This document shows, in pieces, positions 10,458-27,722 of a stretch of DNA of 32,000 nt. The notes below the pieces were generated by a model. The model made no database searches, was not told the DNA's origin, and saw only the letters and a list, made by a program, of their open reading frames with translations. The stretch covers positions 180,001-212,000 of the forward strand of contig CP188088.1 in assembly GCA_049942965.1 (NCBI GenBank), given 5' to 3'. Source of the DNA: Candidatus Saccharimonadota bacterium. GTDB lineage: Bacteria; Pseudomonadota; Gammaproteobacteria; Enterobacterales; Enterobacteriaceae. Position numbers and translations under genes: made by a program. Each line of letters opens with the position of its first letter. Position 1 is the stretch's first letter.

Positions 10458-11488
10458 TTAAAAATTAAAGTTTATTTCTTTTTTGTTTAAAGTAAAAATT
10501 AATATTGATTTTATCGTATGTAATTTATTTATAGACTGTTCAAGAATAATTTTTTTGTTTTTTTGAAAAACTTCATCAGTAATTTCAATTCCATGTTTTA
10601 ATCCAAAATTTTTTATAATTTTTTTTCCTAACGTTGTTTTCAAGTCGTGTAAGGCAGGTAGACAATGAAGAATTTTTATTTGTGGATTGTTTGTTAATTC
10701 TAACATAGAATTATTTATTTGATATTTTTTTAATAGTGATATTTTTTCTTCCCATATTTCTAATTTTTCATTCATAGAAACCCAAACATCTGTATAGATA
10801 AAATCTACTTGATTAATTCCTTTTTCTATATTTTCAGTACATATTATGTTTTTGTTATCAAAATTATTATTTTTTTTAATTTTATGTAAAAAAGAAGGTT
10901 CAGGCCAGTATTTTTTTGGAGCTATAATTCTTAAATTAAATCCAATTAAATTTGAAGCTTCAATTAAAGAATTACTGATGTTGTTTTTTGCATCTCCAAC
11001 ATATGCGCAAGTTATTTCTTCTATTTTTTTGTTTTTAGGTAAATTTTCTTGAATTGTAAGTAAATCTGCTAATAATTGAGTAGGATGGAACTTATTTGTA
11101 AGTGCATTTAATACTGGTATTTTTGAAAGTTTTGAAAATGTTTCTATTGATTCATGTCTATTTCCTCGAAAAACAATTAGATCATATAAACTACTTAATA
11201 TTTCTGTAGTATCTTCTATTGATTCTTTATAGTTTAAATGAGTATCTTTTGGACCTAAATATGTGATATTTGCTCCTTGTTCAAATGATGCAACTTCAAA
11301 AGAACACCTCGTTCTAGTAGATTCTTTTTCAAAAATTAAAACAATTTTTTTATTTTTAAGTATTTTTTTTTTATTTATTTTTTTTTTTTTTTTTTTTTTA
11401 AAAAAGAAGCAAGATCAATTATTTTTTTTATTTCAGAAACAGAATAATCAGATAATTTTAAAAAATTTTTTTTGTATAAAGTATTCAA
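10458..11488 (-). pseudogene. argI: Ornithine carbamoyltransferase, full length but frameshifted once inside a 22-nt poly(A) tract (possibly rescued by slippage)
   Basis: I translated the minus strand by hand. The TTG start at 11488 (GGAG 8 nt upstream) gives [37 protein letters not shown], then TAA. The adjacent frame is open from the tract to the stop at 10458. It encodes [18 protein letters not shown]...[14 protein letters not shown]...[10 protein letters not shown]...[18 protein letters not shown]...[11 protein letters not shown], colinear with E. coli ArgI. The ORF track shows only the last 105 aa because that frame has no ATG further upstream. Confidence 0.85.
11378..11399 (-). repeat. 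Homopolymer: A22 on the argI coding strand (T22 on + strand); site of the argI frameshift
   Basis: Direct count of the T run from 11378 to 11399, confirmed by the antisense ORF-track peptide ...[13 protein letters not shown] (7 Phe codons plus the TTA). A length of 23 or 20 would keep argI in frame. Confidence 0.95.
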
Positions 11489-11640
11489 AAAAATTTCTCC
11501 TTTTTTTTGATTTATTTTTTTTTTGTTTTATTTAAATTTTCTTTTTTAAAAGATACTTTTTTATTATACTTATAAATAATGTATGAAATTTAATTCAATG
11601 ATTAAAAATCAATTAATTATACGATAAAAATGAGAAATTT

Positions 11641-13152
11641 ATGAAATTTTTTGTTAAAAATATAGATTTTAATAAAATTAGAACTGATTGTATTTTATTG
11701 GGCGTATTTAAAAACTCGAAAGAACAACTAAAAAATGGTTATTTATCTAAATTAGATATTTTTTTAAATGGAAAAATTAGTTTTTTATTTAATAAAGAAG
11801 GTTTTTCTGGAGAATTCAATCAAACTTTATTAATTAATGATTATAATGACTCGTCTTTCAAACGAATATTATTAATAGGATGTGGAAATTTTGAGAAATT
11901 TAATAATGTTCGTTATGAAAAAATAATAAGAAACAGCATTAAAATAATAAAATCGACTAATTCTTTAAATTTATTATTTTTTTTAAATGAATTAAAAGTA
12001 AAAAATAAAAATATGTATTGGAAAATACGATTAGCTATAAAGTATATAGAAGACGAATTATATGTTTTTTCAGATTTTAAAAAATCTTTAAAAGAAAAAA
12101 AAAACATTCTTTCAAAAATAACATTTAGTAGTATTTCGAAAAGATGCATAAATGAGATAATTCTAGCTATTAAACATGGTGTTTCAATTTCTGAAGGTGT
12201 AAAAATATCAAAAGATATTAGCAATTTACCTCCAAATATATGTACTCCAACTTATTTATCTAATAAATCTAGAGAATTGTTTGAATTTTCTAAATCTAAA
12301 TTTTCTATAGAAATTCTTAATGAAATAGATCTAAAAAAAAATGGTATGAATGCATATTTAGCAGTTGGTTCTGGTTCTAAAAATGAATCACTAATGACTA
12401 TCATTAGATATAAAAATAGTAGAAAACAAGAAGAAAAACCAATTGTTTTAATTGGAAAAGGTGTTACTTTTGATTCTGGAGGAATATCTTTAAAACCATC
12501 TAATAATATGCATCGAATGAAATATGATATGAGCGGAGCAGCTTCAATATATGGGGTTTTATTTGCAGTTATGAAATTATCTTTGCCAATTAATATCATA
12601 GGAATAATAGCAAGTTGCGAAAATATGCCAAGTGAAAATTCTTTTCGTCCAGGTGATATATTAACTACTATGTCAAAAAAAACAGTAGAAGTATTAAATA
12701 CTGATGCTGAAGGAAGATTGGTTTTATGCGATGTATTAACTTATATAGAAAGATTTAATCCACGTTTAGTCATAGATATTGCAACTTTAACAGGAGCATG
12801 CATTGTAGCGTTAGGAACAGAGATTACTGGTTTAATGAGTAATAATTCTAATTTAGCAAAACAATTATTAATTTCAGGTGAACAATCTGGGGACAAATTG
12901 TGGGAATTGCCTATTCTAGAAGAATCAAAAAAAGATCTAAATTCCAGCATTGCAGATATTACGAATGTTTCTAAAAATGGAGTAGCAGGTGGTGCAATAA
13001 CTGCAGCTTATTTTCTTTCTCTGTTTTGCAAAAAATATAAGTGGGCTCATTTAGATATTGCTGGAACAGCGTATTCAATATTAAAAGATAGTGCTACAGG
13101 GAGACCAGTTGATTTATTAGTACAATTTTTAATAAATAAAATTAATAATTAA
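11641..13152 (+). CDS. pepA: Leucyl/cytosol aminopeptidase PepA
   Basis: 503-aa ORF, the same length I recall for E. coli PepA. M17 peptidase motifs are present: GKGVTFDSGGISLKP, NTDAEGRLVLCD and TLTGACIVALG. Confidence 0.93.
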   Translation: MKFFVKNIDFNKIRTDCILLGVFKNSKEQLKNGYLSKLDIFLNGKISFLFNKEGFSGEFNQTLLINDYNDSSFKRILLIGCGNFEKFNNVRYEKIIRNSIKIIKSTNSLNLLFFLNELKVKNKNMYWKIRLAIKYIEDELYVFSDFKKSLKEKKNILSKITFSSISKRCINEIILAIKHGVSISEGVKISKDISNLPPNICTPTYLSNKSRELFEFSKSKFSIEILNEIDLKKNGMNAYLAVGSGSKNESLMTIIRYKNSRKQEEKPIVLIGKGVTFDSGGISLKPSNNMHRMKYDMSGAASIYGVLFAVMKLSLPINIIGIIASCENMPSENSFRPGDILTTMSKKTVEVLNTDAEGRLVLCDVLTYIERFNPRLVIDIATLTGACIVALGTEITGLMSNNSNLAKQLLISGEQSGDKLWELPILEESKKDLNSSIADITNVSKNGVAGGAITAAYFLSLFCKKYKWAHLDIAGTAYSILKDSATGRPVDLLVQFLINKINN

Positions 13153-13243
13153 TTTTATTTAGTATGATTAAAAAAAATTTTTTTCTTATTTTATCATAAT
13201 TAGTTTTTTTAAAATTTATTTAATATATTTATAGGTAATGAAC

Positions 13244-15886
13244 ATGAAAACAAAATTTGTACCAAAAAATATAGAAAGTTATTTATATGATTTTTGGGAG
13301 AAAAAAAAGTTTTTTTCTCCAAATTATAAAAATGAAGAAGGAAATTTTTGTATTGTAATTCCTCCTCCAAATATTACTGGAGAATTGCATATGGGACATG
13401 CTTTTCAACAAACTTTAATGGACATAATAATAAGATATCAACGAATAAAAGGAAAAAATACATTTTGGCAAACAGGAACTGATCATGCTGGAATTGCTAC
13501 TCAAGTTCTAATTGAAAAAAAATTTTTTAAATTAAAAGAGAATAGAAAAGAGAATAACAAGAAAAAATTAATAAAAAAAATTTGGGAATGGAAAAAAAAA
13601 CTCAATTTTAAAATAAATAATCAAATGCGTTGTTTGGGAAATTCCATAGATTGGAGTAAAGAAAGATTTACTTTAGATAAAGATATGTCAATAGCAGTAC
13701 GAAAATCTTTCATAAAATTGTATAAAAACAAATTAATTTATAAGAGCAAAAAATTATCTAACTGGGATGTATCTTTAAGAACAGTAATTTCTGATTTAGA
13801 AGTTGAGTATAGACAAGTATCAAGTAAAATGTGGAATATATGTTATCCTATTGTTAAAGACAATATAAATAATGAACAAGAATTTTTGGTTATTTCTACT
13901 ACTCGTCCTGAAACATTGTTTGGAGATGTGGCGATTTCTGTACATCCGAATGATATTCGTTATAAAAAATATATTGGTAAATTTGTTTGCGTTCCTTTAA
14001 CAAATAGGATAGTTCCAATCATTTCAGATAATGAAATAGATGTAAACAAAGGTACTGGTTGCGTAAAAATAACTCCAGCTCATGATTTTAAGGATTATGA
14101 AATAGCTAAAAGAAACAATTTACCAATGATTAATATATTTAAAAAAAATGGAAAATTAAGGAGTTCATTACAATTTTTTGATTCACATGGTGATCAATTA
14201 TTTGATGTGAATTTTTTTATTCCTTTGATTTTTAAAAATTTAAATCGATATGAACTTAGAAAAAAAGTTATTTTTGAAATTAATAAACTAGGTTTATTAA
14301 AAGAAGAAAAAATAATACAAAATGTTGTTCCATATGGAGATCGAACTGGAACTATTATTGAACCTATGTTAACAGATCAATGGTATTTAAACACTAAACC
14401 ATTGTCTATATTAGCAATAAAATCTGTAAAAAAAGGAAATATACAATTTATTCCAGATAAATATAAAAATGTTTTTTTTTCTTGGATGGAAAATATTAAT
14501 GATTGGTGTATTTCTAGACAGTTATGGTGGGGACATCAAATTCCTGTTTGGTACGATGAAAAAAACAATATTTATGTTGGAAACGATGAGAATGAAATTA
14601 GAGAAAAGTATAAAATTTCTAAAGACATAACTTTAACTCAAGAAAAAGATGTATTAGATACTTGGTTTTCTTCTGGATTGTGGTGTTTTGCTTCTTTAGG
14701 ATGGCCTAAACAGACAGATTTATTTAAAAACTTTTATCCAACGGATGTTTTAGTGACTGGTTTTGATATTATTTTTTTTTGGGTTTCTAGAATGATTCTT
14801 TTAAGTACATATCTTGTTAAAGATAAATGTGGAAATTCTCAAGTTCCATTTAAAAAAGTTATAGTTACTGGTTTGATTAGAGATGAATTTGGTAAAAAAA
14901 TGTCGAAATCACAAGGTAATGTTATTGATCCTTTAGATATTATACATGGAATTTCTTTATCTGATTTAATAAAAAAACGAACTAAATTTATTTCTAATAA
15001 AGAAACTATACAATCAATTTCTAATTTTATTAAATTTAATTTTCCTAATGGTATTGAAGCTTTTGGTACAGATTCTTTAAGGTTCTATTTTTCTTTTTTA
15101 TCTACTCCTAAACAAGATATTAATTGGAATTATTCTAGATTAAAGTTTTGTAAAAATTTTTGTACTAAATTATGGAATGCTAGTCGATTTGTATTTATTT
15201 ATATTAAAGAGATAAACATAAATACAGAAAATAAAAAAATAAATTTATCTTTTCCTGATCAGTGGATTTTAATTGAATTAAACGAATTAATAAAAAAATA
15301 TGATTTTGAAATGAAAAACTATCGTTTTGATGTAGTGGCTCAAAATTTATATGATTTTTTTTGGAATAAATTTTGTGATTGGTATTTAGAATTTTCTAAA
15401 ATTATTAGAATAAATCAAAAAAAAATAGAATTAGAGGGGACAAGATACTCTCTAAAAAAAGTCTTATTAGCTATATTGATTTTATTACATCCTATTATTC
15501 CATACATCACTGAGTATATTTGGAAAGAAATGAAAAAAATAGATTCTGTTCATGATAAAGAATCAATTTTAGAAGAATCGTTTCCTAGTGTTTTTTCTAT
15601 TGATGCTAATGAAAAAATTATTAAACAAGAAATGGATTGGTTTCAAAAAAAAATTATTGAATTAAGAAATATTAGAATTAAAAGTCATTTTCATCCTAAA
15701 GACATGGTTTTTTTATATTTAAAAAATATTGATTGTAAAAACAAAAAATATTTTGAAAAATATGAAAATTATCTAAAAAAAATGTCTTTTTTAGAAGAAA
15801 TTTTATTTTTATCTGATGAAAAAATGGAATTTAATAATAAATTTAAAAAAATAGATGGTGCAGAATGTCTTATGTTAAAAAAATAG
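13244..15886 (+). CDS. valS: Valine--tRNA ligase (C-terminal coiled-coil domain missing)
   Basis: Class I synthetase motifs are present: PPPNITGELHMGH (HIGH) and KMSKSQGN (KMSKS). The sequence is colinear with E. coli ValS to about ...KKIDGAECLM and then stops. The ORF track starts at 13238. ATG 13244 aligns better with the E. coli N-terminus (MKTKFVPKNIE vs MEKTYNPQDIE) and has better spacing from the AGG at 13233-13235. Confidence 0.93.
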   Translation: MKTKFVPKNIESYLYDFWEKKKFFSPNYKNEEGNFCIVIPPPNITGELHMGHAFQQTLMDIIIRYQRIKGKNTFWQTGTDHAGIATQVLIEKKFFKLKENRKENNKKKLIKKIWEWKKKLNFKINNQMRCLGNSIDWSKERFTLDKDMSIAVRKSFIKLYKNKLIYKSKKLSNWDVSLRTVISDLEVEYRQVSSKMWNICYPIVKDNINNEQEFLVISTTRPETLFGDVAISVHPNDIRYKKYIGKFVCVPLTNRIVPIISDNEIDVNKGTGCVKITPAHDFKDYEIAKRNNLPMINIFKKNGKLRSSLQFFDSHGDQLFDVNFFIPLIFKNLNRYELRKKVIFEINKLGLLKEEKIIQNVVPYGDRTGTIIEPMLTDQWYLNTKPLSILAIKSVKKGNIQFIPDKYKNVFFSWMENINDWCISRQLWWGHQIPVWYDEKNNIYVGNDENEIREKYKISKDITLTQEKDVLDTWFSSGLWCFASLGWPKQTDLFKNFYPTDVLVTGFDIIFFWVSRMILLSTYLVKDKCGNSQVPFKKVIVTGLIRDEFGKKMSKSQGNVIDPLDIIHGISLSDLIKKRTKFISNKETIQSISNFIKFNFPNGIEAFGTDSLRFYFSFLSTPKQDINWNYSRLKFCKNFCTKLWNASRFVFIYIKEININTENKKINLSFPDQWILIELNELIKKYDFEMKNYRFDVVAQNLYDFFWNKFCDWYLEFSKIIRINQKKIELEGTRYSLKKVLLAILILLHPIIPYITEYIWKEMKKIDSVHDKESILEESFPSVFSIDANEKIIKQEMDWFQKKIIELRNIRIKSHFHPKDMVFLYLKNIDCKNKKYFEKYENYLKKMSFLEEILFLSDEKMEFNNKFKKIDGAECLMLKK

Positions 15887-16003
15887 AAGTAAGAAACTAA
15901 ACAATATTGATTTTTAAAAAACAAATTTTTTATAATTTTAGTTAATTATTGTTTATTAAATTTTTGTTTATTTATTTTAATTTTGTTTAAGGAAATCATT
16001 CAA

Positions 16004-16978
16004 ATGAAAAATTTACATAATTTAGTTGAAAGAAAAATACTTAAAAAAAAAATTATGGCCAAAAAAGAAGAAAGAATAGTAGTTTCATTTTATAAATATT
16101 TTCATGTATCCGATATTTTTAATTTTCGTAATAATTTATATAAATTACTATTGTTCTTTAATGTTTTAGGAAGAGTGTATGTATCTAAAGAAGGAATTAA
16201 TTCTCAAATTAGTGTACCGAAAACACAATATTTAAATTTTAAAAAACAAATTCAGAATTTTAATGTTTCTTTGAAAAAAATACATTTTAATACAAGTCAA
16301 ATAAATTATTTAGTTGAACCATTTTGGCTATTAGTTGTAAAAATAAAAACAAAAATTGTCTCTGATGGAATTTCAAATAAAAATTTCAATTTTTTAAAAA
16401 ATAAAGGTTTTTATATAAATGCAGAAGAATTCAATTCAATGTATGTTTCTAATAAAAAAAAAAATGATTCAATTTTTCTTGATATGAGAAATTCTTATGA
16501 ACATGCGATTGGTCGATTTGAAAATTCTATAAATATTTCAAAAAGAACTTTTAAAGATCAAATGAAAAATATTGTTAGTTTTTTAAATCCTTATAAAGAT
16601 AAGAAAATAATAATGTATTGTACAGGTGGAATTAGATGTGAAAAAGCTACTGCATGGATAAAATATCATGGATTTAAACATGTTTATCAATTAAAAAATG
16701 GAATTATTGGGTATTATAATGAAACAAAGAAAAAAAAATTACCAATGTATTTTAAGGGAAAAAATTTTGTTTTTGATGCTAGAATGGGAGAAAAAATTAC
16801 AGATGATTTATTTACAAATTGTAAAATTTGTAAATCACCATCAAATAATTATATTAATTGTAGTTATGAGAGTTGTCATGTTCTTTTTATTCAATGTTTA
16901 CAGTGTTTTAATAAAATGAAAGGTTTTTGTTCTGAAATTTGTTTTTCTAAATTAAAAAATAATAAAAATTTGAAATAA
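16004..16978 (+). CDS. trhO: Rhodanese-domain tRNA uridine(34) hydroxylase TrhO (YceA / UPF0176 family)
   Basis: The ORF contains ISFYKYF-like VVSFYKYF, GRVYVSKEGINSQISVP, the active-site loop MYCTGGIRCEKA, and a C-terminal Cys-rich segment. The track ORF begins at TTG 15983. ATG 16004 (MKNLHNL...) aligns with the E. coli YceA N-terminus (MPVLHNR...) and has AAGGAAA upstream. Confidence 0.85.
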   Translation: MKNLHNLVERKILKKKIMAKKEERIVVSFYKYFHVSDIFNFRNNLYKLLLFFNVLGRVYVSKEGINSQISVPKTQYLNFKKQIQNFNVSLKKIHFNTSQINYLVEPFWLLVVKIKTKIVSDGISNKNFNFLKNKGFYINAEEFNSMYVSNKKKNDSIFLDMRNSYEHAIGRFENSINISKRTFKDQMKNIVSFLNPYKDKKIIMYCTGGIRCEKATAWIKYHGFKHVYQLKNGIIGYYNETKKKKLPMYFKGKNFVFDARMGEKITDDLFTNCKICKSPSNNYINCSYESCHVLFIQCLQCFNKMKGFCSEICFSKLKNNKNLK

Positions 16979-17942
16979 AATTTTTTAAAAAAATATTAAA
17001 TTTAATTTTTAGTTTTTTTAATTAGAATTTTTTTATAATGAAAATTACTTTAAAAAAATTGGGTTTTTAATCTTCTAATTTTTTAAAAAAGTTATATAAA
17101 TTTTAATTTTTTTTCAGTACAAATAAATTTTTATTTAAGTTATTGTTTTTATTTTTAGATTTTTTATTTTTAATTTTTATAAAAAATTTAAAAAAATATA
17201 TTTTTTAAAATATTTTTCACATTTAGTTTTAATTATTTTTTTGATTTTCATAACTGATATTTTTATTTACAAAAATTTAAGAAAATTAATAATAAGCTTT
17301 TTAAAATTAATTTATATGAATCATTTTTTTTTTAATTTTAATCTTTAATTAAAATTATTTAATTTTTAATTTTTATAAAAATTATCAAAATTATTTAGTT
17401 TGTTTTATTTTTTTTTTTTTGTTTATGATGAAATTTTCATTTTTTAATTAAAATTTTTATTTTTATTTAAAAAATAGTTAAATATTTTTTTTTAAATAAT
17501 TAATTTATTTTTTTATTTTTGTTGTTTTTTTTTGTTTTTTTTTTGTCTTTATTAAAAAAAAATATTTTGTTAGTTATTTATTACATTAAAACAAATTTTA
17601 TTCCTAAAATTTAAATTATCTTATTTTTTTTTGATATTTTAATATTTAAAAAATTTTATTTTTTTTAAAATAGTCATATTTATTTACATATGAATAATTA
17701 ATTTAATTAACTATATTAGTTAGTATAATTAATTGGAAAAAATTAGTCTATTGTTTAATTTTTAAAATTTATTTTATTTTAAATAATTTTAGTTTTTTAT
17801 TTATATTAAAAACATTTATTTAATTCTATTTTTTTAGACATTTATATATATAAAATATATTTTTAATGTTTTTGTGAAGTTTTGTAGGATTAATTTTATT
17901 AATAATGTATATATATTATATAATGTTTATATGGGAAAATTT

Positions 17943-19340
17943 ATGTTAATAGTTTCCGCAATAGAAATACAAAATGATGAAGTTAAAATAGGTGAATTAA
18001 TTACTATTAATGGATGGGTTCGATCAAGAAGAGATTCTAAATTAGGTTTTTCTTTCATAGATGTTAATGATGGATCTTCTTGCAATCCAATTCAATGTAT
18101 TGCTCATAATAATTTAAAAAATTATTATGAAGATGTATTAAAACTAACAATAGGTTGTTCAGTAACTATTATAGGAAATTTATTTTTATCTTCTGGAAAA
18201 AAACAAAAATATGAAATTATTGTAAATACAATTAAAATATTAGGTTTTGTAAACAATCCAGATAGATATCCTGTTTCTTCTAAAAATCATACAGTTGAAC
18301 ATTTAAGAAATGTAGTTCATTTACGAGCAAGAACTAATTTGATAGGTTCAATATCTAGAATAAGAGATTTTGTTTCACATTCTTTACGATCTTTTTTATA
18401 TAAAAATAAATACATTTGGATTCCTACTCCTATTATTACTAGTATAGATTCAGAAGGATTAGGAAAAATGTTCCGTGTATCTACCTTAGATTTTTATAAT
18501 TTTCCAAAAGGAAATAATGGAAAAATAGATTTTAAAAAAGATTTTTTTGGAAAAGAATCTTTTCTTACTGTTTCTGGTCAATTAAGTTTAGAAACTTATG
18601 CTTGTTCTTTATCAAAGGTATATACATTTGGACCTACTTTTCGTGCAGAAAACTCAAATACTAGTCGTCATTTAGCTGAATTTTGGATGTTAGAAATAGA
18701 ACAGTCTTTTTTAAATTTAGATCAAATAATTCAATTTTCTGAAAAAATGCTAAAACAATTGATTAATGCAACATTAAAAAATTGTCATCAAGACATTAAA
18801 TTTTTAGAATTAAGATCAAAAAAAGAAATTTTTTCTAAATTAAATTATTTCTTAGATAACGATTTTATTAAAAAGGATTATTCAGAAATAATAGAAATTT
18901 TAAATTTTTCTAAAAAATTTAAAGAAAAAATTAATTTTGGAATAGATTTATCTTCTGAACATGAAAAATATATTTTAAATTATTATTCTAACGTTCCAAT
19001 AATTATTAAAAATCATCCAAAAAAAATAAAAGCTTTTTATATGAAATTAAATTATGATAACAAAACTGTTGCTTCTTTTGATTTGTTATTACCGGGAGTA
19101 GGGGAAGTAATTGGAGGATCAGAAAGAGAAGAAAGAATTGATAAACTAAAATTGAGATTGAAAGAAATAGGGATGTCGTTTCAAGATTATCATTGGTATT
19201 TAGATCTTAGAAAATATGGTACCGTTCCTCATTCTGGTTTTGGAATGGGTTTTGAGCGATTTCTATCTTATATTACTAACATTACTAATGTTAGAGATTT
19301 AATTCCTTTTCCTAGAACTGCTAAAAATTCTCTTTTTTAA
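17943..19340 (+). CDS. asnS: Asparagine--tRNA ligase
   Basis: Colinear with E. coli AsnS from MLIVSAIEIQ.. (vs MSVVPVADVLQ..) through GWVRSRRDSK, FRVSTL, FGPTFRAENSNTSRHLAEFWMLE and GGSEREER to FPRTAKNSLF. The track ORF starts at GTG 17874. ATG 17943 gives 465 aa, close to the E. coli length. Confidence 0.93.
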   Translation: MLIVSAIEIQNDEVKIGELITINGWVRSRRDSKLGFSFIDVNDGSSCNPIQCIAHNNLKNYYEDVLKLTIGCSVTIIGNLFLSSGKKQKYEIIVNTIKILGFVNNPDRYPVSSKNHTVEHLRNVVHLRARTNLIGSISRIRDFVSHSLRSFLYKNKYIWIPTPIITSIDSEGLGKMFRVSTLDFYNFPKGNNGKIDFKKDFFGKESFLTVSGQLSLETYACSLSKVYTFGPTFRAENSNTSRHLAEFWMLEIEQSFLNLDQIIQFSEKMLKQLINATLKNCHQDIKFLELRSKKEIFSKLNYFLDNDFIKKDYSEIIEILNFSKKFKEKINFGIDLSSEHEKYILNYYSNVPIIIKNHPKKIKAFYMKLNYDNKTVASFDLLLPGVGEVIGGSEREERIDKLKLRLKEIGMSFQDYHWYLDLRKYGTVPHSGFGMGFERFLSYITNITNVRDLIPFPRTAKNSLF

Positions 19341-19398
19341 AATAAAAAAATAAAGATATAACAATATTTTAAAAAAAAAATATTTGTTTTTTTGATAA

Positions 19399-19444
19399 AA
19401 TAAACTATATTGGTTTTAGTTTAAAACAGTTTATTATTTTTTTT
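19399..19444 (+). terminator. Candidate asnS terminator (two-tier AT-rich hairpin followed by T8)
   Basis: The outer stem AATAAACT (19399-19406) pairs with AGTTTATT (19428-19435). The inner stem GTTTT (19413-19417) pairs with AAAAC (19423-19427) around a 5-nt loop. The sequence then runs A + T8 (19437-19444), about 60 nt after the asnS stop. The stem is AT-rich, so the call is weak. Confidence 0.3.
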
Positions 19445-19524
19445 AAATTATTTTTTAGAATAACAAATATAGAAATGTTGATTTTTTTTTTAAATATAAC
19501 ATAATGGTAAAATAATACATTCTT

Positions 19525-20664
19525 ATGAAGAATTATAAATTTTTAATGCTATTTCTTTGTTTAGTATTGCCTTTTAATTTTGTTCAGTCTGCAGTGTTAT
19601 ATAGTAATAAAGGTGATAAACTAGAAATCGATGCTCAAATTAAAAAAAATCAAAATGTTACTCATTCAAAAGAAAGATGTTTTGTATGTTTAAATAAAGA
19701 TAAAGAAAATGTTTCTGTTGCTCTTTTCGCTAAAAAAAAAATAACTCAAGATTTGTCTACTTATGGTTATATTCATTATTTTTCTAATTTAAATGAATTA
19801 AAATCTTTTTTTATGAATTCTAAATTTAAAAAAACTGATTTTGGTTATTTTGGAATACGTTCTAAAAATTTTGGAGAATTTGAATATAGTCGTAATAATG
19901 GAGTTATGCACGATTTATTATATTTGTTAAAAATGGATAATTTAAACAAAAATAATATAAATTTGGATCATCAAATTTTTTTAGACAACAAAAACTACAT
20001 TTTTACATATCGTACAAATAACTCTTATTTTTCTCCTAAATTTTTGAATTTTTCTTTAGAATTAAGAGGTAATCCTTTACATTCTAGTCTTTCTACGAAA
20101 AAAAATGAAATAGAGTTGAACGGTATAGGATGTTCAATAGCGTATAATAATAATAAAAATAAATTAGGATTTTCTTCAGTTTTATCTTATTTTGTAAAAG
20201 ATCGTCCTAAATTTGGTGTAGAAGATAAAAAAGGTAGATTAACTACTTCTTGTGGATTATCTATGAAATATGATTTTAAAAAATCATATATGATGCTTCT
20301 TCTTGGTACGAACAAAAACATTATTATTAATAAATTTTATAATTCAGTTTTAAAAAATGATGGGTTAGTTCAATTAATAGCTGGATATAATTTTGATAAA
20401 AACCTTAGTTCATTAGTTTCTTTTTCTAATTTACGAGAAAATGAGTTATTTGTTTTAAATAAGAATAATGTTTATCAAAATCAAGAAAAATTTAGTTACC
20501 ACAATAAGTTTAAAATATTAACTAATTATAGTTTTAACAAAAATTTAGATTCATATCTTGATTACACAATAAATTTGTCAAAAATAAATAATAGTTTATA
20601 TAATGATAAACAAAAAATTTTTAGAAACAATTTTTTAGAATTAGGGTTAAGATATCATTTTTAG
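19525..20664 (+). CDS. ompF: Outer-membrane general porin, OmpF/OmpC family
   Basis: 379-aa ORF. The N-terminal signal peptide is MKNYKFLMLFLCLVLPFNFVQSA. The mature protein starts AVLYSNKGDKLEI (cf. AEIYNKDGNK in enterobacterial porins). The C-terminus is ELGLRYHF, a terminal aromatic beta-barrel signature. It lies directly downstream of asnS, as ompF does in E. coli. Confidence 0.75.
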   Translation: MKNYKFLMLFLCLVLPFNFVQSAVLYSNKGDKLEIDAQIKKNQNVTHSKERCFVCLNKDKENVSVALFAKKKITQDLSTYGYIHYFSNLNELKSFFMNSKFKKTDFGYFGIRSKNFGEFEYSRNNGVMHDLLYLLKMDNLNKNNINLDHQIFLDNKNYIFTYRTNNSYFSPKFLNFSLELRGNPLHSSLSTKKNEIELNGIGCSIAYNNNKNKLGFSSVLSYFVKDRPKFGVEDKKGRLTTSCGLSMKYDFKKSYMMLLLGTNKNIIINKFYNSVLKNDGLVQLIAGYNFDKNLSSLVSFSNLRENELFVLNKNNVYQNQEKFSYHNKFKILTNYSFNKNLDSYLDYTINLSKINNSLYNDKQKIFRNNFLELGLRYHF

Positions 20665-20713
20665 AATTTGTTTTTTTTTAAAATTGTACATTTTTAAAGT
20701 TCATTATTTTAAA

Positions 20714-20809
20714 AAAATTCTCTTCTGAATAATTTTTCATAAAAAATATTTTTTAAAATTCATTTATTATATTTATTTTTTGAAATTTTAAAAATCAGAA
20801 GAGAATTTT
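20714..20809. repeat. Perfect 15-bp inverted repeat (AAAATTCTCTTCTGA / TCAGAAGAGAATTTT) separated by 66 nt, in the ompF-hinT convergent spacer
   Basis: The left arm is 20714-20728 and the right arm 20795-20809. The arms are exact reverse complements and include the G/C-containing core CTCTTCTG, which is unusual for this sequence composition. Confidence 0.8.
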
Positions 20810-20895
20810 ATAATTTTTTAATTATTTTAATTTTTAAATTAATTAAATAGAAAATATTTATTTTTATAAATGTTTTTTATTTTTTAATTCACTTA

Positions 20896-21252
20896 TTATG
20901 TAATTGGTCCTAATTTTTTTCCTCCTAAAAGATGAATATGTAAATATGGTATTTCTTGGCCACCATCTTTATTACAATTTATTACTATTCGATAGCCATT
21001 TTTTTCTATTTTTCTTTTTTTTGCGATTTTTACAGCAATAAATATCATTTCTGCTATTATATCTTTATTATTGATATTAATTTGATTAATATTTTTTATT
21101 TTTTTATTTGGAATGATTAAAATATGTATTGGTGCTTTTGGATTAATGTCTTCAAATGCTGTCAAAGTATTATTTTGATAAACAATTTTTGATTTAATTT
21201 TTTTTTTAATAATTTTTTCAAATATATTATCTTTATTTATTTTTTCTTTCAT
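20896..21252 (-). CDS. hinT: HIT-family purine nucleoside phosphoramidase HinT (YcfF)
   Basis: 118-aa ORF with [39 protein letters not shown] and the histidine triad HIHLLGG. It sits next to ptsG, as expected once the E. coli neighbour fhuE is lost. Confidence 0.88.
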
Positions 21253-21342
21253 TTTTATATAAAATATTATGTAAATTAATAATTTTTAAAAATCAATTTA
21301 AATTTTATTTTGTAATTTATTTTAAATAATTAATCTTTATTA

Positions 21343-22776
21343 TTAATTTTTCATATATTTTTCCATTTTGTTTTTTATTTGATCAGATTTTGTTCCAAAT
21401 ACTATTTGTATTCCAACTCCAGATATGATTACTCCTGAAGAACCAGTTTTCTTTATTTCTTTTACATCGACTTGATTAATATTAATTACTGTTATTCTTA
21501 ATCTAGTAATACAAGCATCTAAATTTTCAATGTTTTTTTTTCCTCCTAGAGCTATAATTAATCTTTTTGAAATTTTATTTATATCATTAGATTGAGGAAA
21601 AAAATTGTTTTTTTCTCTTCCTGGTGTTTTTAAATTTAATCTTGTTATCAACGTATAAAATATATAATAATATATAAATAAATAAATTATTCCAACAATA
21701 GGAAACAACCAAATTCTATGACTATTTCCACTTAAAATTAAAAAGTCTATTAGACCATGAGAAAAACTAGTACCTGCTCTCATGTCAAATAAAATACATA
21801 TAGTGAAAGCTAAACCAGATAGAATTGCATGTAATGCATATAATATTGGAGAGACCAATAAAAATGAAAATTCAATTGGTTCAGTAATTCCAGTTAAAAA
21901 TGCTGTTAATGCTCCAGGAATCATTATTCCTGCGACATTTGATCGATTTTCTTGTCTGGAAGATTTCCAAATAGCTAAAGCAGCTCCTGGAAGACCATAC
22001 ATTTTGAATAAAAACCCACCAGAAAGTTTTCCAGCAGTTGGATCTCCAGCCATGTATCTTGCAATATCACCATGAAAGGTTTGTCCAGTAGAATTTGTAT
22101 AATTTCCAATTTGCATTTGAAATGGTACATTCCAAATATGATGTAGACCGAATGGAACTAAAGATCTTTCAATTAATCCATAAATCCCAAATGCAAGCAT
22201 TGGATCTTGATAAGCTGACCATTCTGAAAATAATTGAATTAAATATCCAATTGGAGGCCATAAAAAAGATAATATAATTCCTAAGATTATTGAAAAAAAA
22301 CCAGAAACAATTGGAACGAATCTTTTTCCTGAAAAGAAACCTAAATATTCTGGTAAATGAATTTTATAAAATTTATTAAACAAATATGCAGATAAAGTTC
22401 CAGATAGAATCCCTCCAAAAATTCCAGTATCATAATAAAAACTTCCTTGTTGAAAATTTATATTTTTTATTTGTATCATTAATGGAGATATAGTTGATAT
22501 AGTACTTGTCATAATTCCATATGATATAACAGCTGCTAATGCAGATACTCCATCGTTTTTAGTAAATCCTAGAGCTACCCCAATAGAAAATATCAAAGGC
22601 ATATTAGAAAATACTGAAGTTCCTGATTTGTACATAATATTTGAAATTATTATAGGAATAAAAGAAAATTTTGCCGATCCTATTCCTAATAAAATTCCAG
22701 CTATAGGTAATACAGAAACAGGTAGCATTAATGATTTCCCTATTTTTTGTAGACTAGAAAATGAATTTTTTAACAT
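21343..22776 (-). CDS. ptsG: PTS glucose-specific EIICB component
   Basis: 477-aa ORF, the same length I recall for E. coli PtsG. The N-terminus [33 protein letters not shown] is nearly identical to E. coli. The EIIB motif LDACITRLR is present near the C-terminus. Confidence 0.95.
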
Positions 22777-22895
22777 TAATTTTTTTCTCTTTTTTAAAAT
22801 AAAAGTATAAAAAATTTTTTTGAATTTTATTAAAAATTAAATATAAATAAATTTATTTTTTAATGAAAAAAAATCATTTTTCTAAAAAAAGTATT

Positions 22896-23677
22896 TTATA
22901 TATTAATTGTTGGAAATAATTCATAAAAATTTTTTTTAGTGATATTCACTAGATTTTCAAAATCAATTTTTTTTATTTTAGCTACTTGTTTTGCTATATA
23001 AGGTAAATATGATGGTTGATTTTCCTTGCCTCTATTTGGAACTGGAGATAAATATGGTGAATCAGTTTCAATTAAAATTGACTCAAAAGGTATATATCTT
23101 AAAACTTTTTTTAGTTCATCAGTTTTGTTGAAGGTAATTATCCCTGAAAATGATATATAAAATCCTAAGTCTAGTAATTTTTTAGCATATATTATATTTT
23201 TTTCGGAAAAAGAATGAAGTATTCCTCGACAATCATTTGCTTTTTCTTCTTTCAGTATTTTAATGGTATCTTGAATGGATGATCTTGAATGTACGATTAT
23301 TGGTTTTTTAATTTTTTTAGCTATTTGAATATGTTTTCTAAACGATTCTTGTTGATATTTTATATTTTCTTTACTATGGAAATAATCTAATCCAGTTTCT
23401 CCTATTGCAATTACTTTTTTTATATTTGAAAAATTTTCTAAACTTAAAAAATTATTTTTATTTTTTTTAACATATAATGGATGAATTCCACAAGAATAAA
23501 AAACATTTTTTTTTTTATTGAATTTGATATTTTTTTAAAATTTTTAATAGAAGTAGATATAGTTAGGAATAAACGAACTTTGTTTAAAACCGCATTTTTT
23601 ATTATTTCATCAAGATTCATTCTTGTTTTTTTTAAATTTATTTTGTCTAAATGACAATGACTGTCTATCAAATACAT
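22896..23677 (-). pseudogene. ycfH: TatD-family metal-dependent hydrolase YcfH, full length but frameshifted once inside an A11 tract
   Basis: The N-terminal frame reads MYLIDSHCHLDKINLKK...NSIKKK and then runs out of frame. I translated the adjacent frame by hand from the tract to TAA at 22898-22896 and found no stop. It encodes NVFYSCGIHPL...IAIGETGLDYF...KPIIVHSRSS...GILHSFSE...GFYISFSGIITF...ILIETDSPYLSPVPNRGKENQPS..., colinear with E. coli YcfH. With one extra A the total is about 260 aa. Confidence 0.85.
23506..23516 (-). repeat. Homopolymer: A11 on the ycfH coding strand; site of the ycfH frameshift
   Basis: Direct count of the T run 23506-23516 on the + strand. A length of 12 or 9 would keep ycfH in frame. 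Confidence 0.9.
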
Positions 23678-23705
23678 AAAATTTACTCTTTAGATTTTTA
23701 TTTAT

Positions 23706-24680
23706 TTATAAGTTTAATATTTTTTTCCAATAAAGAAATTGTTCTACTATTAATAATTCTTGATTTATTCCTGCAATGGAAATAATTCTATTATAGCATC
23801 TTATCCAAGATTTAAATGATTTATTTAAACCTTCGAATGTACAATTTTTAGATAAAAAATTTATTAATTTTATTTGGTCTAAATTAACTAAATTTTTTTT
23901 TAAATTATGTTTGTATTTTATTGTATCTAGCAAAAAACAACAAATGCCATTAATGAATAAAAAATTATCTTTTTTGGAAATAATTGAAATAATTGATTTT
24001 ATTATTCCGTTTTTTATAAATTCTTTTAATAAAAAGAAAAATTCAATTCTTAATTTCCAAAAAATACTTTCAAATAATTTTTTTGAATCAATTGGAGAAT
24101 TATTACAAGTTCTTAATAAAATTAAATAATTATTGTTTTTTGTTTTTAAAGATTGATTTTTTAACCAAACAACACCTTCTTTTTCAGTAGGAGGAGGTAA
24201 AAAATGTAATAAACATCTGCTTTTTAAAGTTTTTGGAATATAATAATTATTGTTGTATTCAAAAAAAAACCAAGTATTTTTAGGTGGTTCTTCGATTATT
24301 TTTAATAAAGAGTTAATGGATGAAACTGTTAAATTTTCAGAGTTTTGAAAGAAAATAACTTTACCAACTTTTTGTTGTGAGGTAAGAAGAACTTTTCTTT
24401 TTAAAGAATTGATAAAATCTATTCCAATTTTGTTTTCATGACTTTCTTTTTTTATATGATACCAGTCTGGATGAGAGTTGGAATCCATTAATAAACAACT
24501 ATTACATACTTCACATTTTTTTTTTTTTAAACATAAAATTCGTTTTGCAATGTTCCAAACTAATTTAATAATATCTAAATTTTGATCAGATATTATCATT
24601 CTTGCGTGGTGGTTTCTTTTATTGTTGTGTTGTTTAACAATTTCTAAATAAATTTTTTTATGCCAAGAATATAAATTCAT
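23706..24680 (-). CDS. holB: DNA polymerase III subunit delta-prime
   Basis: MNLYSWHKKIYLEIVKQHNNKRNHHARMI aligns with E. coli HolB MRWYPWLRPDFEKLVASYQAGRGHHALLI. Also present are the Zn module CEVCNSCLLMDSNSHPDWY, LLKIIEEPP and LKSRC. The track ORF starts at 24701. ATG 24680 is the aligned start and forms an ATGA overlap with the tmk stop (24679-24677). Confidence 0.85.
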   Translation of the reverse strand: MNLYSWHKKIYLEIVKQHNNKRNHHARMIISDQNLDIIKLVWNIAKRILCLKKKKCEVCNSCLLMDSNSHPDWYHIKKESHENKIGIDFINSLKRKVLLTSQQKVGKVIFFQNSENLTVSSINSLLKIIEEPPKNTWFFFEYNNNYYIPKTLKSRCLLHFLPPPTEKEGVVWLKNQSLKTKNNNYLILLRTCNNSPIDSKKLFESIFWKLRIEFFFLLKEFIKNGIIKSIISIISKKDNFLFINGICCFLLDTIKYKHNLKKNLVNLDQIKLINFLSKNCTFEGLNKSFKSWIRCYNRIISIAGINQELLIVEQFLYWKKILNL

Positions 24681-25315
24681 TTTTTTGTTTTTTTTAACCA
24701 TGTTTTGATAGTTTCATATATTAAATTATTTACAACAGAAATGTTTTTGTTAGCTTTGATTTTTATTGCAATTGGATTAGAATTTACTAATTCTAAGTAT
24801 TTTTTTCTTACACGAACAAAAAAACTAATATTTTTTTGTTCTATTCTATCTAAATACATTCTATTTTTTTTTATTCTTTGTAGTCCTATGATTGGATCAA
24901 TATCCAAATATAAAATTAAGTTTGGATGCAATGGTTCTACTAAGAAATTTCTGAGATGATTAATAAAATTTATATTTATTCGAGATCCTGCTCCCTGATA
25001 AGCTATTGAAGACATATCAAATCTATCACAAATTATCCAACTTCCTTTTTCTAATTCTGGTTTAATAATTGTTTCAATTAGTTGTGTTCTAGCGGCATAC
25101 ATTAATAAAAGTTCAGCTTTTTTTGTAATTCTTCCAATTGTTTTTTTTTCTTTTATTATTTCTCTTATTTTTTCTCCAACTTTGGTACTTCCAGGTTCTC
25201 TGATTAAAATAGAGTTATTAATTCCAAATGATTCCAAAGTTTTTTGAACTTGTTTACAAGCATTCGTTTTTCCCGATCCTTCTATTCCTTCAATTACAAT
25301 AAATTTATTTTTCAT
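24677..25315 (-). CDS. tmk: Thymidylate kinase
   Basis: 212-aa ORF with the P-loop FIVIEGIEGSGKT and DRFDMSSIAYQG. It is in the syntenic tmk-holB-ycfH-ptsG order. Confidence 0.92.
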   Translation of the reverse strand: MKNKFIVIEGIEGSGKTNACKQVQKTLESFGINNSILIREPGSTKVGEKIREIIKEKKTIGRITKKAELLLMYAARTQLIETIIKPELEKGSWIICDRFDMSSIAYQGAGSRININFINHLRNFLVEPLHPNLILYLDIDPIIGLQRIKKNRMYLDRIEQKNISFFVRVRKKYLELVNSNPIAIKIKANKNISVVNNLIYETIKTWLKKTKK

Positions 25316-25407
25316 GTTATTTGTGTGAATTATTTTTAATAATTTTTCATTATATTAATTTTAATATGCAATTATATTTTTTTTTATATTTTTTATATTT
25401 TTTATAA

Positions 25408-25425
25408 GATCTTTTTAAAAAGATC
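25408..25425. repeat. Perfect 18-bp palindrome GATCTTTTTAAAAAGATC in the acpP-tmk spacer
   Basis: The sequence 25408-25425 equals its own reverse complement. It is flanked by two GATC tetranucleotides in an otherwise almost G/C-free 259-bp spacer. Confidence 0.8.
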
Positions 25426-25574
25426 AATTTTTAATAGTCTTTTTAAATTTTATAAGTTATACATGAACTTTTTATTTTAATTAAATTTATTTTTTTTATT
25501 GTTTAGTTTTTTTTAAAAAAATAATTTTAATAAAAAAACTTTTATTTATTTTATATATTATTTATTTTGAATTA

Positions 25575-25820
25575 TTAATTATTATTAATAATAATTTTAT
25601 TTTTAATATATTTAATTGTATTTTCTATTGTGTTTATGTATTTCATATCTTCGTCTGGAATATCAATTTTAAATTTTTCTTCTAGATTCATAACAAGTTC
25701 TATCATATCTAGAGAATCTGCTTCTAAATCTTTAACATAATCTGATTTTTTAAAAATTTTTTCTATTTTTTTATCTAATTGAATAGAAACAATTTGTTTT
25801 ATTTCTTTTTCAATGTCCAT
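25575..25820 (-). CDS. acpP: Acyl carrier protein
   Basis: MDIEKEIKQIVSIQL...DLEADSLDMIELVMNLEEKFKIDIPDED aligns with E. coli ACP, including the phosphopantetheine-attachment DSL motif. The aligned start is ATG 25820, with AGGAG 8 nt upstream. The track ORF's upstream extension to 25892 overlaps the fabG 3' end and is probably not translated. Confidence 0.92.
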   Translation of the reverse strand: MDIEKEIKQIVSIQLDKKIEKIFKKSDYVKDLEADSLDMIELVMNLEEKFKIDIPDEDMKYINTIENTIKYIKNKIIINNN

Positions 25821-25869
25821 TATTTTGTCTCCTAAAGGAATACTTTTAAATAGATCTTTTTTTAAGATA

Positions 25870-26604
25870 TTAAGTAGTTTGCATACCTCCATTTACATGA
25901 ATCACTTGTCCAGTAATGTATGAAGATTTTTTTGAAGATAAAAATGATACAACATTAGCAATATCAGACGCTGTTCCAAAACGTTTCATTGGTATACTTA
26001 ATAAGTATTTGTCTATTTGTTTTTTACTTAATTTTTTTGTCATATTAGACATGATAAATCCAGGAGAGATAATATTTACAGTAATTTTACGAGAGGCAAC
26101 TTCTATTGCAAGTGATTTATGAAAACCTATTAGTGCAGATTTTGAACTTGAATAGCTAATTTGACCACTATTTCCTATAGATCCTATAATAGATCCTATT
26201 GTAATTATTCTACCTTTTCTTTTTTTTATCATGTTCTTTATTACTGATTGTGATAAATGAAATATTGAGGTTAAATTTATTTTTAACGTTTCTTCCCATT
26301 CGAAGATAGAGATTTTTGGTAGTAAGTTATTGTAATTAATTCCTATGTTATTTACTAAAATATTAATATCTCCAAAATTCATATTAATAAAATTTATTTT
26401 TTTTTTAATATCATCAGGATCTTTAACGTTAATTATTATTCCTTCTCCATTTTTATCTAGTATCTTTTTTATTTTTTTTACTCCGTTTTTAGTTCTACTA
26501 GAACCAAAAACAAATATTTTTTGTTTTGATAGTTCTTGTGCTATTTTTTGTCCTATTTCTCCTGTTGCTCCAGTAACTAAAGCTATTTCTTTACCCTGAT
26601 ACAT
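25870..26604 (-). CDS. fabG: 3-oxoacyl-[ACP] reductase FabG
   Basis: 244-aa ORF, the same length I recall for E. coli FabG. SDR motifs are present: VTGATGEIG, NNIGI and YSSSKSALIGFHKSLA (the YxxxK catalytic motif). The C-terminus is GQVIHVNGGM. Confidence 0.93.
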   Translation of the reverse strand: MYQGKEIALVTGATGEIGQKIAQELSKQKIFVFGSSRTKNGVKKIKKILDKNGEGIIINVKDPDDIKKKINFINMNFGDINILVNNIGINYNNLLPKISIFEWEETLKINLTSIFHLSQSVIKNMIKKRKGRIITIGSIIGSIGNSGQISYSSSKSALIGFHKSLAIEVASRKITVNIISPGFIMSNMTKKLSKKQIDKYLLSIPMKRFGTASDIANVVSFLSSKKSSYITGQVIHVNGGMQTT

Positions 26605-26737
26605 CTTTTTTTTTCCTAATTATTTTTTTTAAAAAAAAAATTTTTTTTATTATTTAAAGAAATAGAAATAGAATCTTTTATGTTTTTATTTAAATTTGTT
26701 AATACTTTACTAGTTCCAACTTCTAATAATAGAAAAG

Positions 26738-26750
26738 TTTTTTTTTTTTT
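26738..26750 (-). repeat. Homopolymer: A13 on the fabD coding strand; second fabD frameshift site
   Basis: Direct count of the T run 26738-26750. A length of 14 or 11 would join frame (b) to frame (c). Confidence 0.9.
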
Positions 26751-27302
26751 AAAATAAAATTTATACTTTTTTTCCAGTTTATTGGTTCTACTAATTGTCT
26801 TATTAAAGCTGTCTTTATTTTTTTATTAGATTTTTCATACTTTACATCAACATTGTTAATAATTGGAAAATCAGGCTTTTTAAAAAAAACGTTTTTTAAA
26901 AATTTAGAAAATTTTTTAGATGCGTTTTTCATTAAAATACAATGTGAAGGAACATTTATTGATAAATGAAAAACAGCTTTCGCACCTAATAATTTACATA
27001 TTTTTTCTATTTTATGTAGTTTTTTTTTATTTCCAGATACTACAATTTCAGTGTCAGAATTTATACTAGAAATAGCAGCAAATTCATTTTTAAAAAAATT
27101 TTTGCAAATTTTTTTTATTATTTTTTTTTTCATTCCAATTATTGCCATCATAGATCCTGGATTATTTTTTGCTGATTCTTGCATAAGTTTATTTCTTTGT
27201 ATAACAGTTTTTAGCCCATCTTTTAATGAGATTGAATTAGAACAAACTAATGCTGAATATTCTCCTAGACTATGACCTGCGGCTATATTAGGAATTTTTT
27301 CG

Positions 27303-27312
27303 TTTTTTTTTT
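27303..27312 (-). repeat. Homopolymer: A10 on the fabD coding strand; first fabD frameshift site
   Basis: Direct count of the T run 27303-27312. A length of 11 or 8 would join frame (a) to frame (b). The two track ORFs 27283..27540 and 26723..27316 overlap here. Confidence 0.9.
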
Positions 27313-27722
27313 CCATGTATAATAAAGAGAAACTGAAGTTGTTAATATTAAAGCTGGAATATATTCATTGTTTTTGAAGTTATTATTATAGTTTCCGTTT
27401 ATATATTTCCACAAATTATGGTTAATGTAATCAGAAGCTTCATCAAAAGTATTTTTTATTATAGGGAAAGTTTTGGATAATTTAAATAATATATCTGTTC
27501 TTTGAGACCCCTGACCTGGAAATATCATTGCAAATTTCATTTTTTACCTGTTATTTAAAAACATATTTTTTATGTAATATTTTTTTAAATTTTGTAAACA
27601 AAAAATTTTTTTGAAATTATTAATTTTTCAAAAAATAAGAATTTCTACGAATTATTAATTTGTTAAATAGTATTTAAAAATTAAAAAAAAAAAAAAAATT
27701 CTTATTTTAATAACTTATGTTT

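Follow-up and report, generated by a model that had tools for sequence, protein, structure and literature searches.

The DNA analysed here, a stretch of 32,000 nucleotides (nt) hereafter called the window (positions 180,001 to 212,000 of CP188088.1), belongs to the 530,863-bp genome of Buchnera aphidicola from the aphid Tetraneura akinire (CP188088), its Pnp protein being identical to XRY30862.1 of Buchnera aphidicola (Tetraneura akinire). The window has a G+C content of 22% and carries nusA-infB-rbfA-truB-rpsO-pnp-deaD, ridA-argI and pepA-valS-trhO-asnS-ompF, followed by hinT-ptsG-ycfH-holB-tmk-acpP-fabG-fabD-rpmF-rluC, rne and flgK; 11 of these genes were confirmed by model scan and the others were named from gene order. 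Six-frame translation revealed four frame switches on the minus strand, all of them inside long A tracts, one each in argI and ycfH and two in fabD (Table 1). An initial annotation of the window had described these four frameshifts as tracts that are one A too short and can be repaired by adding one A or removing two, and had offered two explanations, namely a deletion bias of replication slippage with tolerance through transcriptional slippage, or homopolymers systematically under-called by one base. All four switches are present in the window as deposited, three of them in ycfH and fabD are real, and the A22 tract of argI is not found in the Illumina data of the same sample.

The accompanying remark that many equally long tracts stay in frame was borne out by our count of 18 in-frame sense-strand A runs of 10–14 nt in the window, plus one sense-strand T10; 17 of these A runs had been listed before, the additional one lying in argI (11363-11372). 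These in-frame controls include three A11 runs in infB as well as the A13 run in holB.

Table 1. Genes and homopolymer tracts discussed in the text, in window coordinates.
Feature	Position	Strand	Basis
argI (ornithine carbamoyltransferase), frameshifted in the window, intact in same-sample Illumina data	10458..11488	(-)	frame switch; ornithine carbamoyltransferase models; P0361
argI A22 tract, residual nanopore assembly error	11378..11399	(-)	A13-G-A6 in related strain; P0361
ycfH (YchF/TatD-family metal-dependent hydrolase), one genuine frameshift	22896..23677	(-)	PRK10812 match after +1
ycfH A11 tract, needs +1 A, same length in three lineages	23506..23516	(-)	Illumina contig, 98.7%-identical strain, T. 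sorini
fabD (acyl carrier protein S-malonyltransferase), two genuine frameshifts	26616..27540	(-)	TIGR00128 match after double correction
First fabD tract, A10, needs +1 A	27303..27312	(-)	window, L012, L001, L016
Second fabD tract, A13, needs +1 A	26738..26750	(-)	window, Illumina contig, 98.7%-identical strain
holB A13 tract, equally long, in frame	24516..24528	(-)	identical in Illumina contig; T. sorini A12 plus substitution, also in frame
pnp A11 tract, in frame in the window	6290..6300	(+)	A10 in nanopore-only assembly; control for under-calling

The argI tract

The CP188088 assembly was built from nanopore reads (FLO-MIN111, Guppy 4.2.3) with miniasm and Racon and was then polished in three rounds of Pilon with Illumina 75-nt paired reads, the T. 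akinire runs being SRR33632138 (Illumina) and SRR32628560 (nanopore) (PMC12243488). The platform that the initial annotation had feared thus did enter the assembly, although its output was polished with short reads. When an assembly made from short reads alone is combined with sister strains, homopolymer artefacts of the same sample can be told from real frameshifts without raw pile-ups. The Illumina-only Logan contig SRR33632138_4420 (37,425 nt) is 100% identical to window positions 19870-27698. As comparison lineages we used a 98.7%-identical strain, the Buchnera of T. sorini (CP188087, L001; about 94% nucleotide identity to the window across 8097-29343), a more distant and probably T. ulmi-like lineage (ERR13998916, L016; 81% amino-acid identity) and the Buchnera of E. 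harunire (CP188086, L002).

At the A22 tract of argI, the first reading frame reads MNTLYKK...FLKKKKKKK and then stops, the next frame taking over with KKK..., and the part downstream of the tract covers ornithine carbamoyltransferase models from about position 25-32 onwards, up to their end. The Illumina contig SRR33632138_4420 encodes an in-frame ArgI of 342 amino acids (P0361) that equals the window translation except at the tract, where it reads ...FLKKKKEKINKKK..., with KKKKEK in place of the A22. In the 98.7%-identical strain (L017-L019: GCA_035718965.1, SRR7186527, SRR7186545) the site is TTTT-A13-G-A6-T, compared with TTTT-A22-T in the window, and the KKKKEK of P0361 points to the same A13-G-A6 in the T. 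akinire sample itself. The true argI tract is thus most likely A13-G-A6, 20 nt long and in frame. The argI frameshift is a technical artefact, and the organism itself has an intact gene; relative to the supported sequence, the deposit carries 2 nt too many at this tract and has lost the G, which makes the error an over-call rather than an under-call. The discrepancy between platforms sits in a 37-nt purine run, and nanopore-only contigs break at window positions 11329 and 11516, on either side of the tract.

The sister genome shows the same behaviour. The T. sorini deposit carries A25-GAAAG-A12 at this site (CP188087, L001:3264-3331), an out-of-frame state that calls for -1, whereas the Illumina contig of T. 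sorini (SRR33632137, L020) reads A13-GAAGAAAGAA-AT-A10, in frame. This contig is 99.88% identical to the deposit across 9.2 kb, and the 7-nt difference at the argI site is as large as the sum of all gap positions between them (7). The T. sorini case is therefore the same class of artefact from the same pipeline, with opposite polarity. The Buchnera of T. ulmi has an intact ArgI of 336 amino acids. Among the four tracts of the window, argI was the only one whose deposited length differed from the Illumina assembly of that sample. The argI error thereby resembles the homopolymer or low-complexity errors of nanopore sequencing that survive polishing, with a nanopore-first assembly, disagreeing Illumina data and a likewise affected sister genome, but it differs from the classic one-base nanopore under-call in being an expansion with a lost G; the other three tracts fall outside this class. 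argI should accordingly be re-annotated as intact in both CP188088 and CP188087, which bears on the nutritional role of the symbiont in arginine biosynthesis.

Frameshifts in ycfH and fabD

The two remaining genes gave a different result. After addition of one A, YcfH matches PRK10812 positions 1-254 of 265, and FabD, which is split by its two shifts into pieces of 85, 197 and about 42 codons, matches TIGR00128 positions 1-288 of 290 once both tracts are corrected; the peptides encoded after the FabD shifts include IPNIAAGHSLGEYSALVCSNSISLK and VLTNLNK. The Illumina contig SRR33632138_4420 has A11 in ycfH and A10 and A13 in fabD, exactly as in the window, and all three lengths are equal again in the 98.7%-identical strain (metagenome-assembled genome GCA_035718965.1 and a contig of SRR14373458), whose 197-residue FabD piece, encoding both fabD tract lengths, is recorded from four contigs. 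The ycfH A11, the fabD A10 and the fabD A13 are real chromosomal features, each within a lysine-coding sense-strand A run that falls short of the frame by one A.

That all four frameshifts are nanopore homopolymers under-called by one base is, in light of these data, hardly credible. The assembly is nanopore-based (PMC12243488), argI is truly artefactual, and one-base under-calling does occur in the raw nanopore assembly, where the Logan contigs break at long tracts. In the nanopore-only contig of SRR32628560, the pnp tract is A10 instead of the A11 of the window, the sole difference in 5.3 kb and one that would frameshift pnp, and the 69-residue N-terminal YcfH fragment of the nanopore-only assembly (P0368) points to an A10 in place of the ycfH A11. 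At both pnp and ycfH, polishing removed the error from the deposit, so that the suspected systematic under-calling holds for the nanopore-only assembly and has been polished out of the deposited sequence. Against under-calling at all four sites stand the Illumina-only contig, which repeats the window lengths once in ycfH and twice in fabD, another strain with unrelated read sets, in which all three lengths recur, the presence of the ycfH A11 and the first fabD A10 in T. sorini and of the latter also in L016, the 18 in-frame tracts of equal lengths, and the argI error itself, which is an over-call with a lost G. The technical explanation thus applies to argI only, and even there its form had been misjudged, the tract being 2 nt too long rather than one short. 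The biological explanation fails for argI and is supported for ycfH and both fabD tracts by the Illumina contig, the 98.7%-identical strain, the relatives and, as described below, purifying selection. The comparison of tract lengths across strains, as had been proposed, separated the sites in the same way, as the ycfH and fabD lengths recur while the A22 of argI does not.

Comparison with the relatives allowed the frameshifts to be placed in order. In T. sorini, neither the ycfH A11 nor the first fabD A10 differs in length or frame relation, and at the first fabD site A10 and its frame relation are common to all four of the window, L012, L001 and L016. At the second fabD site, T. sorini has an A14 that keeps the frame, with a 234-residue product in NCBI and Logan records, and L016 has A6-T-A4, likewise in frame, its first site being A10 and needing +1; the second shift is common to two strains only. 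In the Buchnera of E. harunire, ycfH and fabD are both intact, and the YcfH of T. ulmi Buchnera is annotated as truncated (196 amino acids). These patterns indicate that the ycfH shift and the first fabD shift predate the divergence of the Tetraneura-Buchnera lineages, their lengths having been kept exactly, and that the second fabD shift came later, when the T. akinire lineage lost 1 nt (A14 to A13).

As a separate observation, the 3' end of fabD (26620-26640) consists of adjoining T8 and A10 runs whose lengths differ among the window, the 98.7%-identical strain and T. sorini, so that the FabD C-terminal tail varies between lineages.

The current deposit lists fabD as a 'hypothetical protein' and an 'acyltransferase domain-containing protein', and ycfH as a truncated 'TatD family hydrolase'. 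Judged from the sequence comparisons, each of the two should be annotated as a single frameshifted gene that is probably expressed. As the initial annotation had anticipated, the choice of explanation alters the annotation of three genes, and those of argI, ycfH and fabD are all to be corrected.

Selection, rescue and polarity

The ratio of non-synonymous to synonymous substitution rates (dN/dS) was obtained by the Nei-Gojobori method from a comparison of the window with T. sorini, one frame segment at a time. For ycfH, dN/dS was 0.17 before the tract and 0.09 after it (202 codons), and the N-terminal, middle and C-terminal pieces of fabD gave 0.31, 0.10 and 0.33, respectively, compared with 0.11-0.31 in 17 intact genes. 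Against L016, the fabD segments showed values of 0.14-0.28 at a dS of at least 0.33. No stop or gap codons were found in the shifted frames of ycfH and fabD relative to T. sorini. Over the same divergence the spacers are rich in indels, the trhO-asnS spacer of 895 nt showing 258 gap columns, for instance, and of 14 spacer tracts of at least 9 nt only 1 is equally long in T. akinire and T. sorini, compared with both of the old frameshift tracts. ycfH and fabD are thus still under purifying selection, a signature of use and not of pseudogene decay, and since the codons past the shifts are included in this selection, full-length proteins presumably must still be made.

These values also bear on the view that ycfH and fabD are young, unrescued pseudogenes heading for deletion, which we regard as improbable. 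According to the literature, gene loss in Buchnera usually begins with homopolymer indels, and each Buchnera genome has 1-18 such frameshifts; furthermore, two hits in fabD would be expected if the first had removed constraint, and Traverse and Ochman found no frame-restoring transcripts. However, the ycfH shift and the first fabD shift are older than lineages that now stand at a dS of about 0.1-0.35 or more, the downstream frames have remained free of stops and further indels with dN/dS values (0.09-0.33) like those of intact neighbours, and spacers of similar size, including nearly all of their long tracts, changed over the same time.

Taken together, we consider it likely that the window contains one artefact, in argI, and three real frameshifted alleles that are still used and probably rescued by slippage; ycfH and fabD would most likely be in use via transcriptional slippage, ribosomal slippage or both. 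In the proposed mechanism, deletion-prone replication slippage would yield alleles that are one A short, and RNA polymerase would slip backward on the A/T run and thereby add an extra A to a fraction of the transcripts, possibly aided by -1 slipping of ribosomes on A-AAA-AAA. Tamas and co-workers (2008, PNAS) reportedly found that, in Buchnera and Blochmannia, transcriptional slippage rescues frameshifts in poly(A) tracts. Such frameshifts can persist across populations and species with part of the mRNA corrected, and Wernegreen et al. (2010) stated that 'selection maintains ancient frameshifts'; for conserved endosymbiont poly(A) frameshifts, correction has been given as 12–50% of transcripts in a review and as about 30% in another paper. 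ycfH and fabD resemble this class in that the frameshift lies within a sense A run of at least 10 nt of an otherwise intact gene, is conserved between strains or species without rate acceleration, and occurs in an AT-rich reduced endosymbiont genome. They differ from it in the genes and the lineage concerned (ycfH and fabD in Tetraneura, Eriosomatinae), in the double shift of fabD, and in being known from sequence. The sequence features by which the class is recognized, namely a sense A run of about 9 nt or longer, an otherwise intact gene, independent reproduction, and conservation with purifying selection past the shift, are all found in ycfH and fabD, while argI drops out of it, not having been reproduced by Illumina. 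An Eriosomatinae case with a doubly shifted fabD is new within this known class of conserved poly(A) frameshifts.

Alternatively, the frame could be restored in translation, by a ribosome that slips by -1 on A-AAA-AAA, either in a dnaX-like manner or by sliding on poly(A). In dnaX, the A-AAA-AAG heptamer favours a -1 ribosomal shift. Zero-frame A-AAA-AAA heptamers occur in each of the three tracts, and a tract one nt short requires exactly the -1 shift that is the favoured direction on such heptamers; a review moreover deems translational correction plausible in endosymbionts. The other elements of a dnaX-type programmed -1 frameshift were not seen at the three tracts, as the 80 nt downstream fold no better than shuffled sequences (z = -0.68, -0.47 and +0.67), no upstream Shine-Dalgarno-like element (GGAG-like) was found, and no Rfam match or tRNA was detected in the window. 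Any translational contribution would therefore be unprogrammed. In addition, the Buchnera and Blochmannia cases examined in the literature are corrected at the mRNA level. We thus hold translational correction to be a tentative possibility with the chances rather against it, and one that is compatible with transcriptional slippage and not exclusive of it.

Several points weigh against the proposed rescue of real frameshifts. First, what speaks for rescue is selection together with precedent, and the conclusion is drawn from these two. Second, fabD would require two independent corrections per molecule, resulting in a low full-length yield, and the Buchnera transcription-error data of Traverse and Ochman, as mentioned above, held no error that restored a frame. 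Third, adding one A at the first fabD site yields a protein one residue longer than intact orthologues and removing two yields one that is a residue shorter, and as these versions flank the orthologue length, the alignment does not fix the ancestral length of this tract. Fourth, even Illumina assemblies do not give dependable lengths once a run reaches about 14 nt, and the fabD A13 is near this limit; for the rpmF-fabD spacer tract of the other strain, for instance, the metagenome-assembled genome and the SRR14373458 contig disagree (T14 vs T17). Finally, the Illumina libraries used for polishing were constructed using a TruSeq RNA Library Prep Kit (PMC12243488), and any cDNA in the polishing input could bring transcript-level slippage into the assembly. 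The 37-kb Illumina contig, which covers spacers and both strands, argues for genomic DNA as the input, although the wording on the kit leaves a small doubt.

A further comparison is offered by the phase-variable contingency genes of Haemophilus, Neisseria and Campylobacter, in which a coding homopolymer likewise sets the open frame. These genes vary in tract length within populations, whereas neither the ycfH tract nor the first fabD tract varies in length from strain to strain or from species to species, and the genes are of the housekeeping type, neither surface nor restriction genes; phase variation, which depends on variable tract length, is thus not indicated for these two tracts. The fixed lengths may also be read in a more far-reaching way, according to which the out-of-frame state of ycfH and of the first fabD tract would be actively maintained as a low-yield expression valve, with slippage setting the dose of FabD and YcfH. 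One A short would then be the sole stable state under insertion-biased slippage, and the W-KKK-N site of fabD, discussed below, might have been recruited independently in Aphidinae and Eriosomatinae. In favour of this reading, a length change between T. akinire and T. sorini is seen in 13 of 14 spacer tracts but in neither of these two, and a one-step reversion to the in-frame state, although always available, was never fixed in three to four lineages. We nevertheless regard such a valve as doubtful.

The shared polarity had been called suggestive but not significant, and we agree, the count being within chance in a two-sided binomial test (p = 0.125 for four of four events, p = 0.25 for the three real ones). 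The Buchnera of E. harunire adds an A11 frameshift in holB (CP188086, L002:16419-16429) that also needs one more A, with a HolB fragment of 258 amino acids recorded in NCBI and in Logan (the Logan run being either Illumina or nanopore), and its inclusion gives four of four validated events and again p = 0.125. Among the spacers, eight tracts differ in length between the window and the 98.7%-identical strain, for most of which the state in T. sorini as the outgroup is ambiguous. The inferred changes for all homopolymer frameshifts of four Aphidinae Buchnera species are given by Degnan, Ochman and Moran (2011) in their Table S3, and our tally of its runs of at least 8 nt gave 31 '-1A' against 4 '+1A' entries (binomial p = 3.5e-6). 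The directional pattern is therefore real in Buchnera generally and already visible in published data, and hence not new here, but it cannot be established from this window alone.

We infer that the shared polarity reflects this general pattern and is best explained by the deletion bias of replication slippage combined with a survivorship filter. Of the transcription errors in Buchnera, 151 of 157 insertions were located in homopolymers, compared with 16 of 57 deletions (Traverse and Ochman). Because errors on A/T runs are mostly single-base insertions, an allele that is one A short is the kind best repaired by polymerase slippage, and such +1-biased transcription errors would rescue one-A-short alleles far better than one-A-long alleles. 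Insertion-biased transcriptional slippage would thus account for the one-A-short state of nearly all frameshifts that survive in Buchnera.

fabD itself is among the entries of Table S3 (Degnan, Ochman and Moran 2011): A. pisum and A. kondoi are listed with -1A (10A), U. ambrosiae with -1A (9A). The '-1A (10A)' event, as listed, agrees with that of Tetraneura in gene, lesion type, tract length and polarity. Where the first fabD tract lies, intact Buchnera FabD proteins carry W-KKK-N, and a hot spot at this motif that is common to Aphidinae and Tetraneura fabD is plausible. Unlike in Tetraneura, fabD is intact in the Buchnera of S. graminum and in many others, and thus the Tetraneura event is probably independent of the Aphidinae event.

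Further observations in the window

Long runs inside genes are strand-asymmetric across the whole window, with 22 sense A runs vs 1 sense T run at a length of at least 10 nt, and 97 vs 11 at a length of at least 8 nt. The Illumina contig SRR33632138_4420 ends exactly at the rpmF-fabD spacer tract 27683-27698 (A16 on the plus strand), and the sizing limit of about 14 nt is also relevant to the A13 (31233-31245) and A14 (31612-31625) runs of flgK. A fifth frameshift at the start of flgK was considered and rejected, as the frame is open up to the window edge.

The short rne gene (29210-30466) was likewise rejected as a frameshift, since no frame continues past its stop and the product of the 98.7%-identical strain also has 418 amino acids. 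RNase E matches model positions 1-416 of 1068 and here comprises the catalytic half only, ending just past the CxxC zinc-link region.

The T. sorini orthologue of trhO has a stop within the frame of the window gene (15983-16978), and its product on the T. sorini Illumina contig (L020:377-1351) measures 324 amino acids compared with 331 in the window. The spacer between trhO and asnS (16979-17873, 895 nt) contains several T9-T13 runs and no open reading frame, tRNA or Rfam match. In the Buchnera of E. harunire, this interval is occupied by uup (ABC-F ATPase) and by pncB (nicotinate phosphoribosyltransferase); the window has lost the two genes without detectable remnants.

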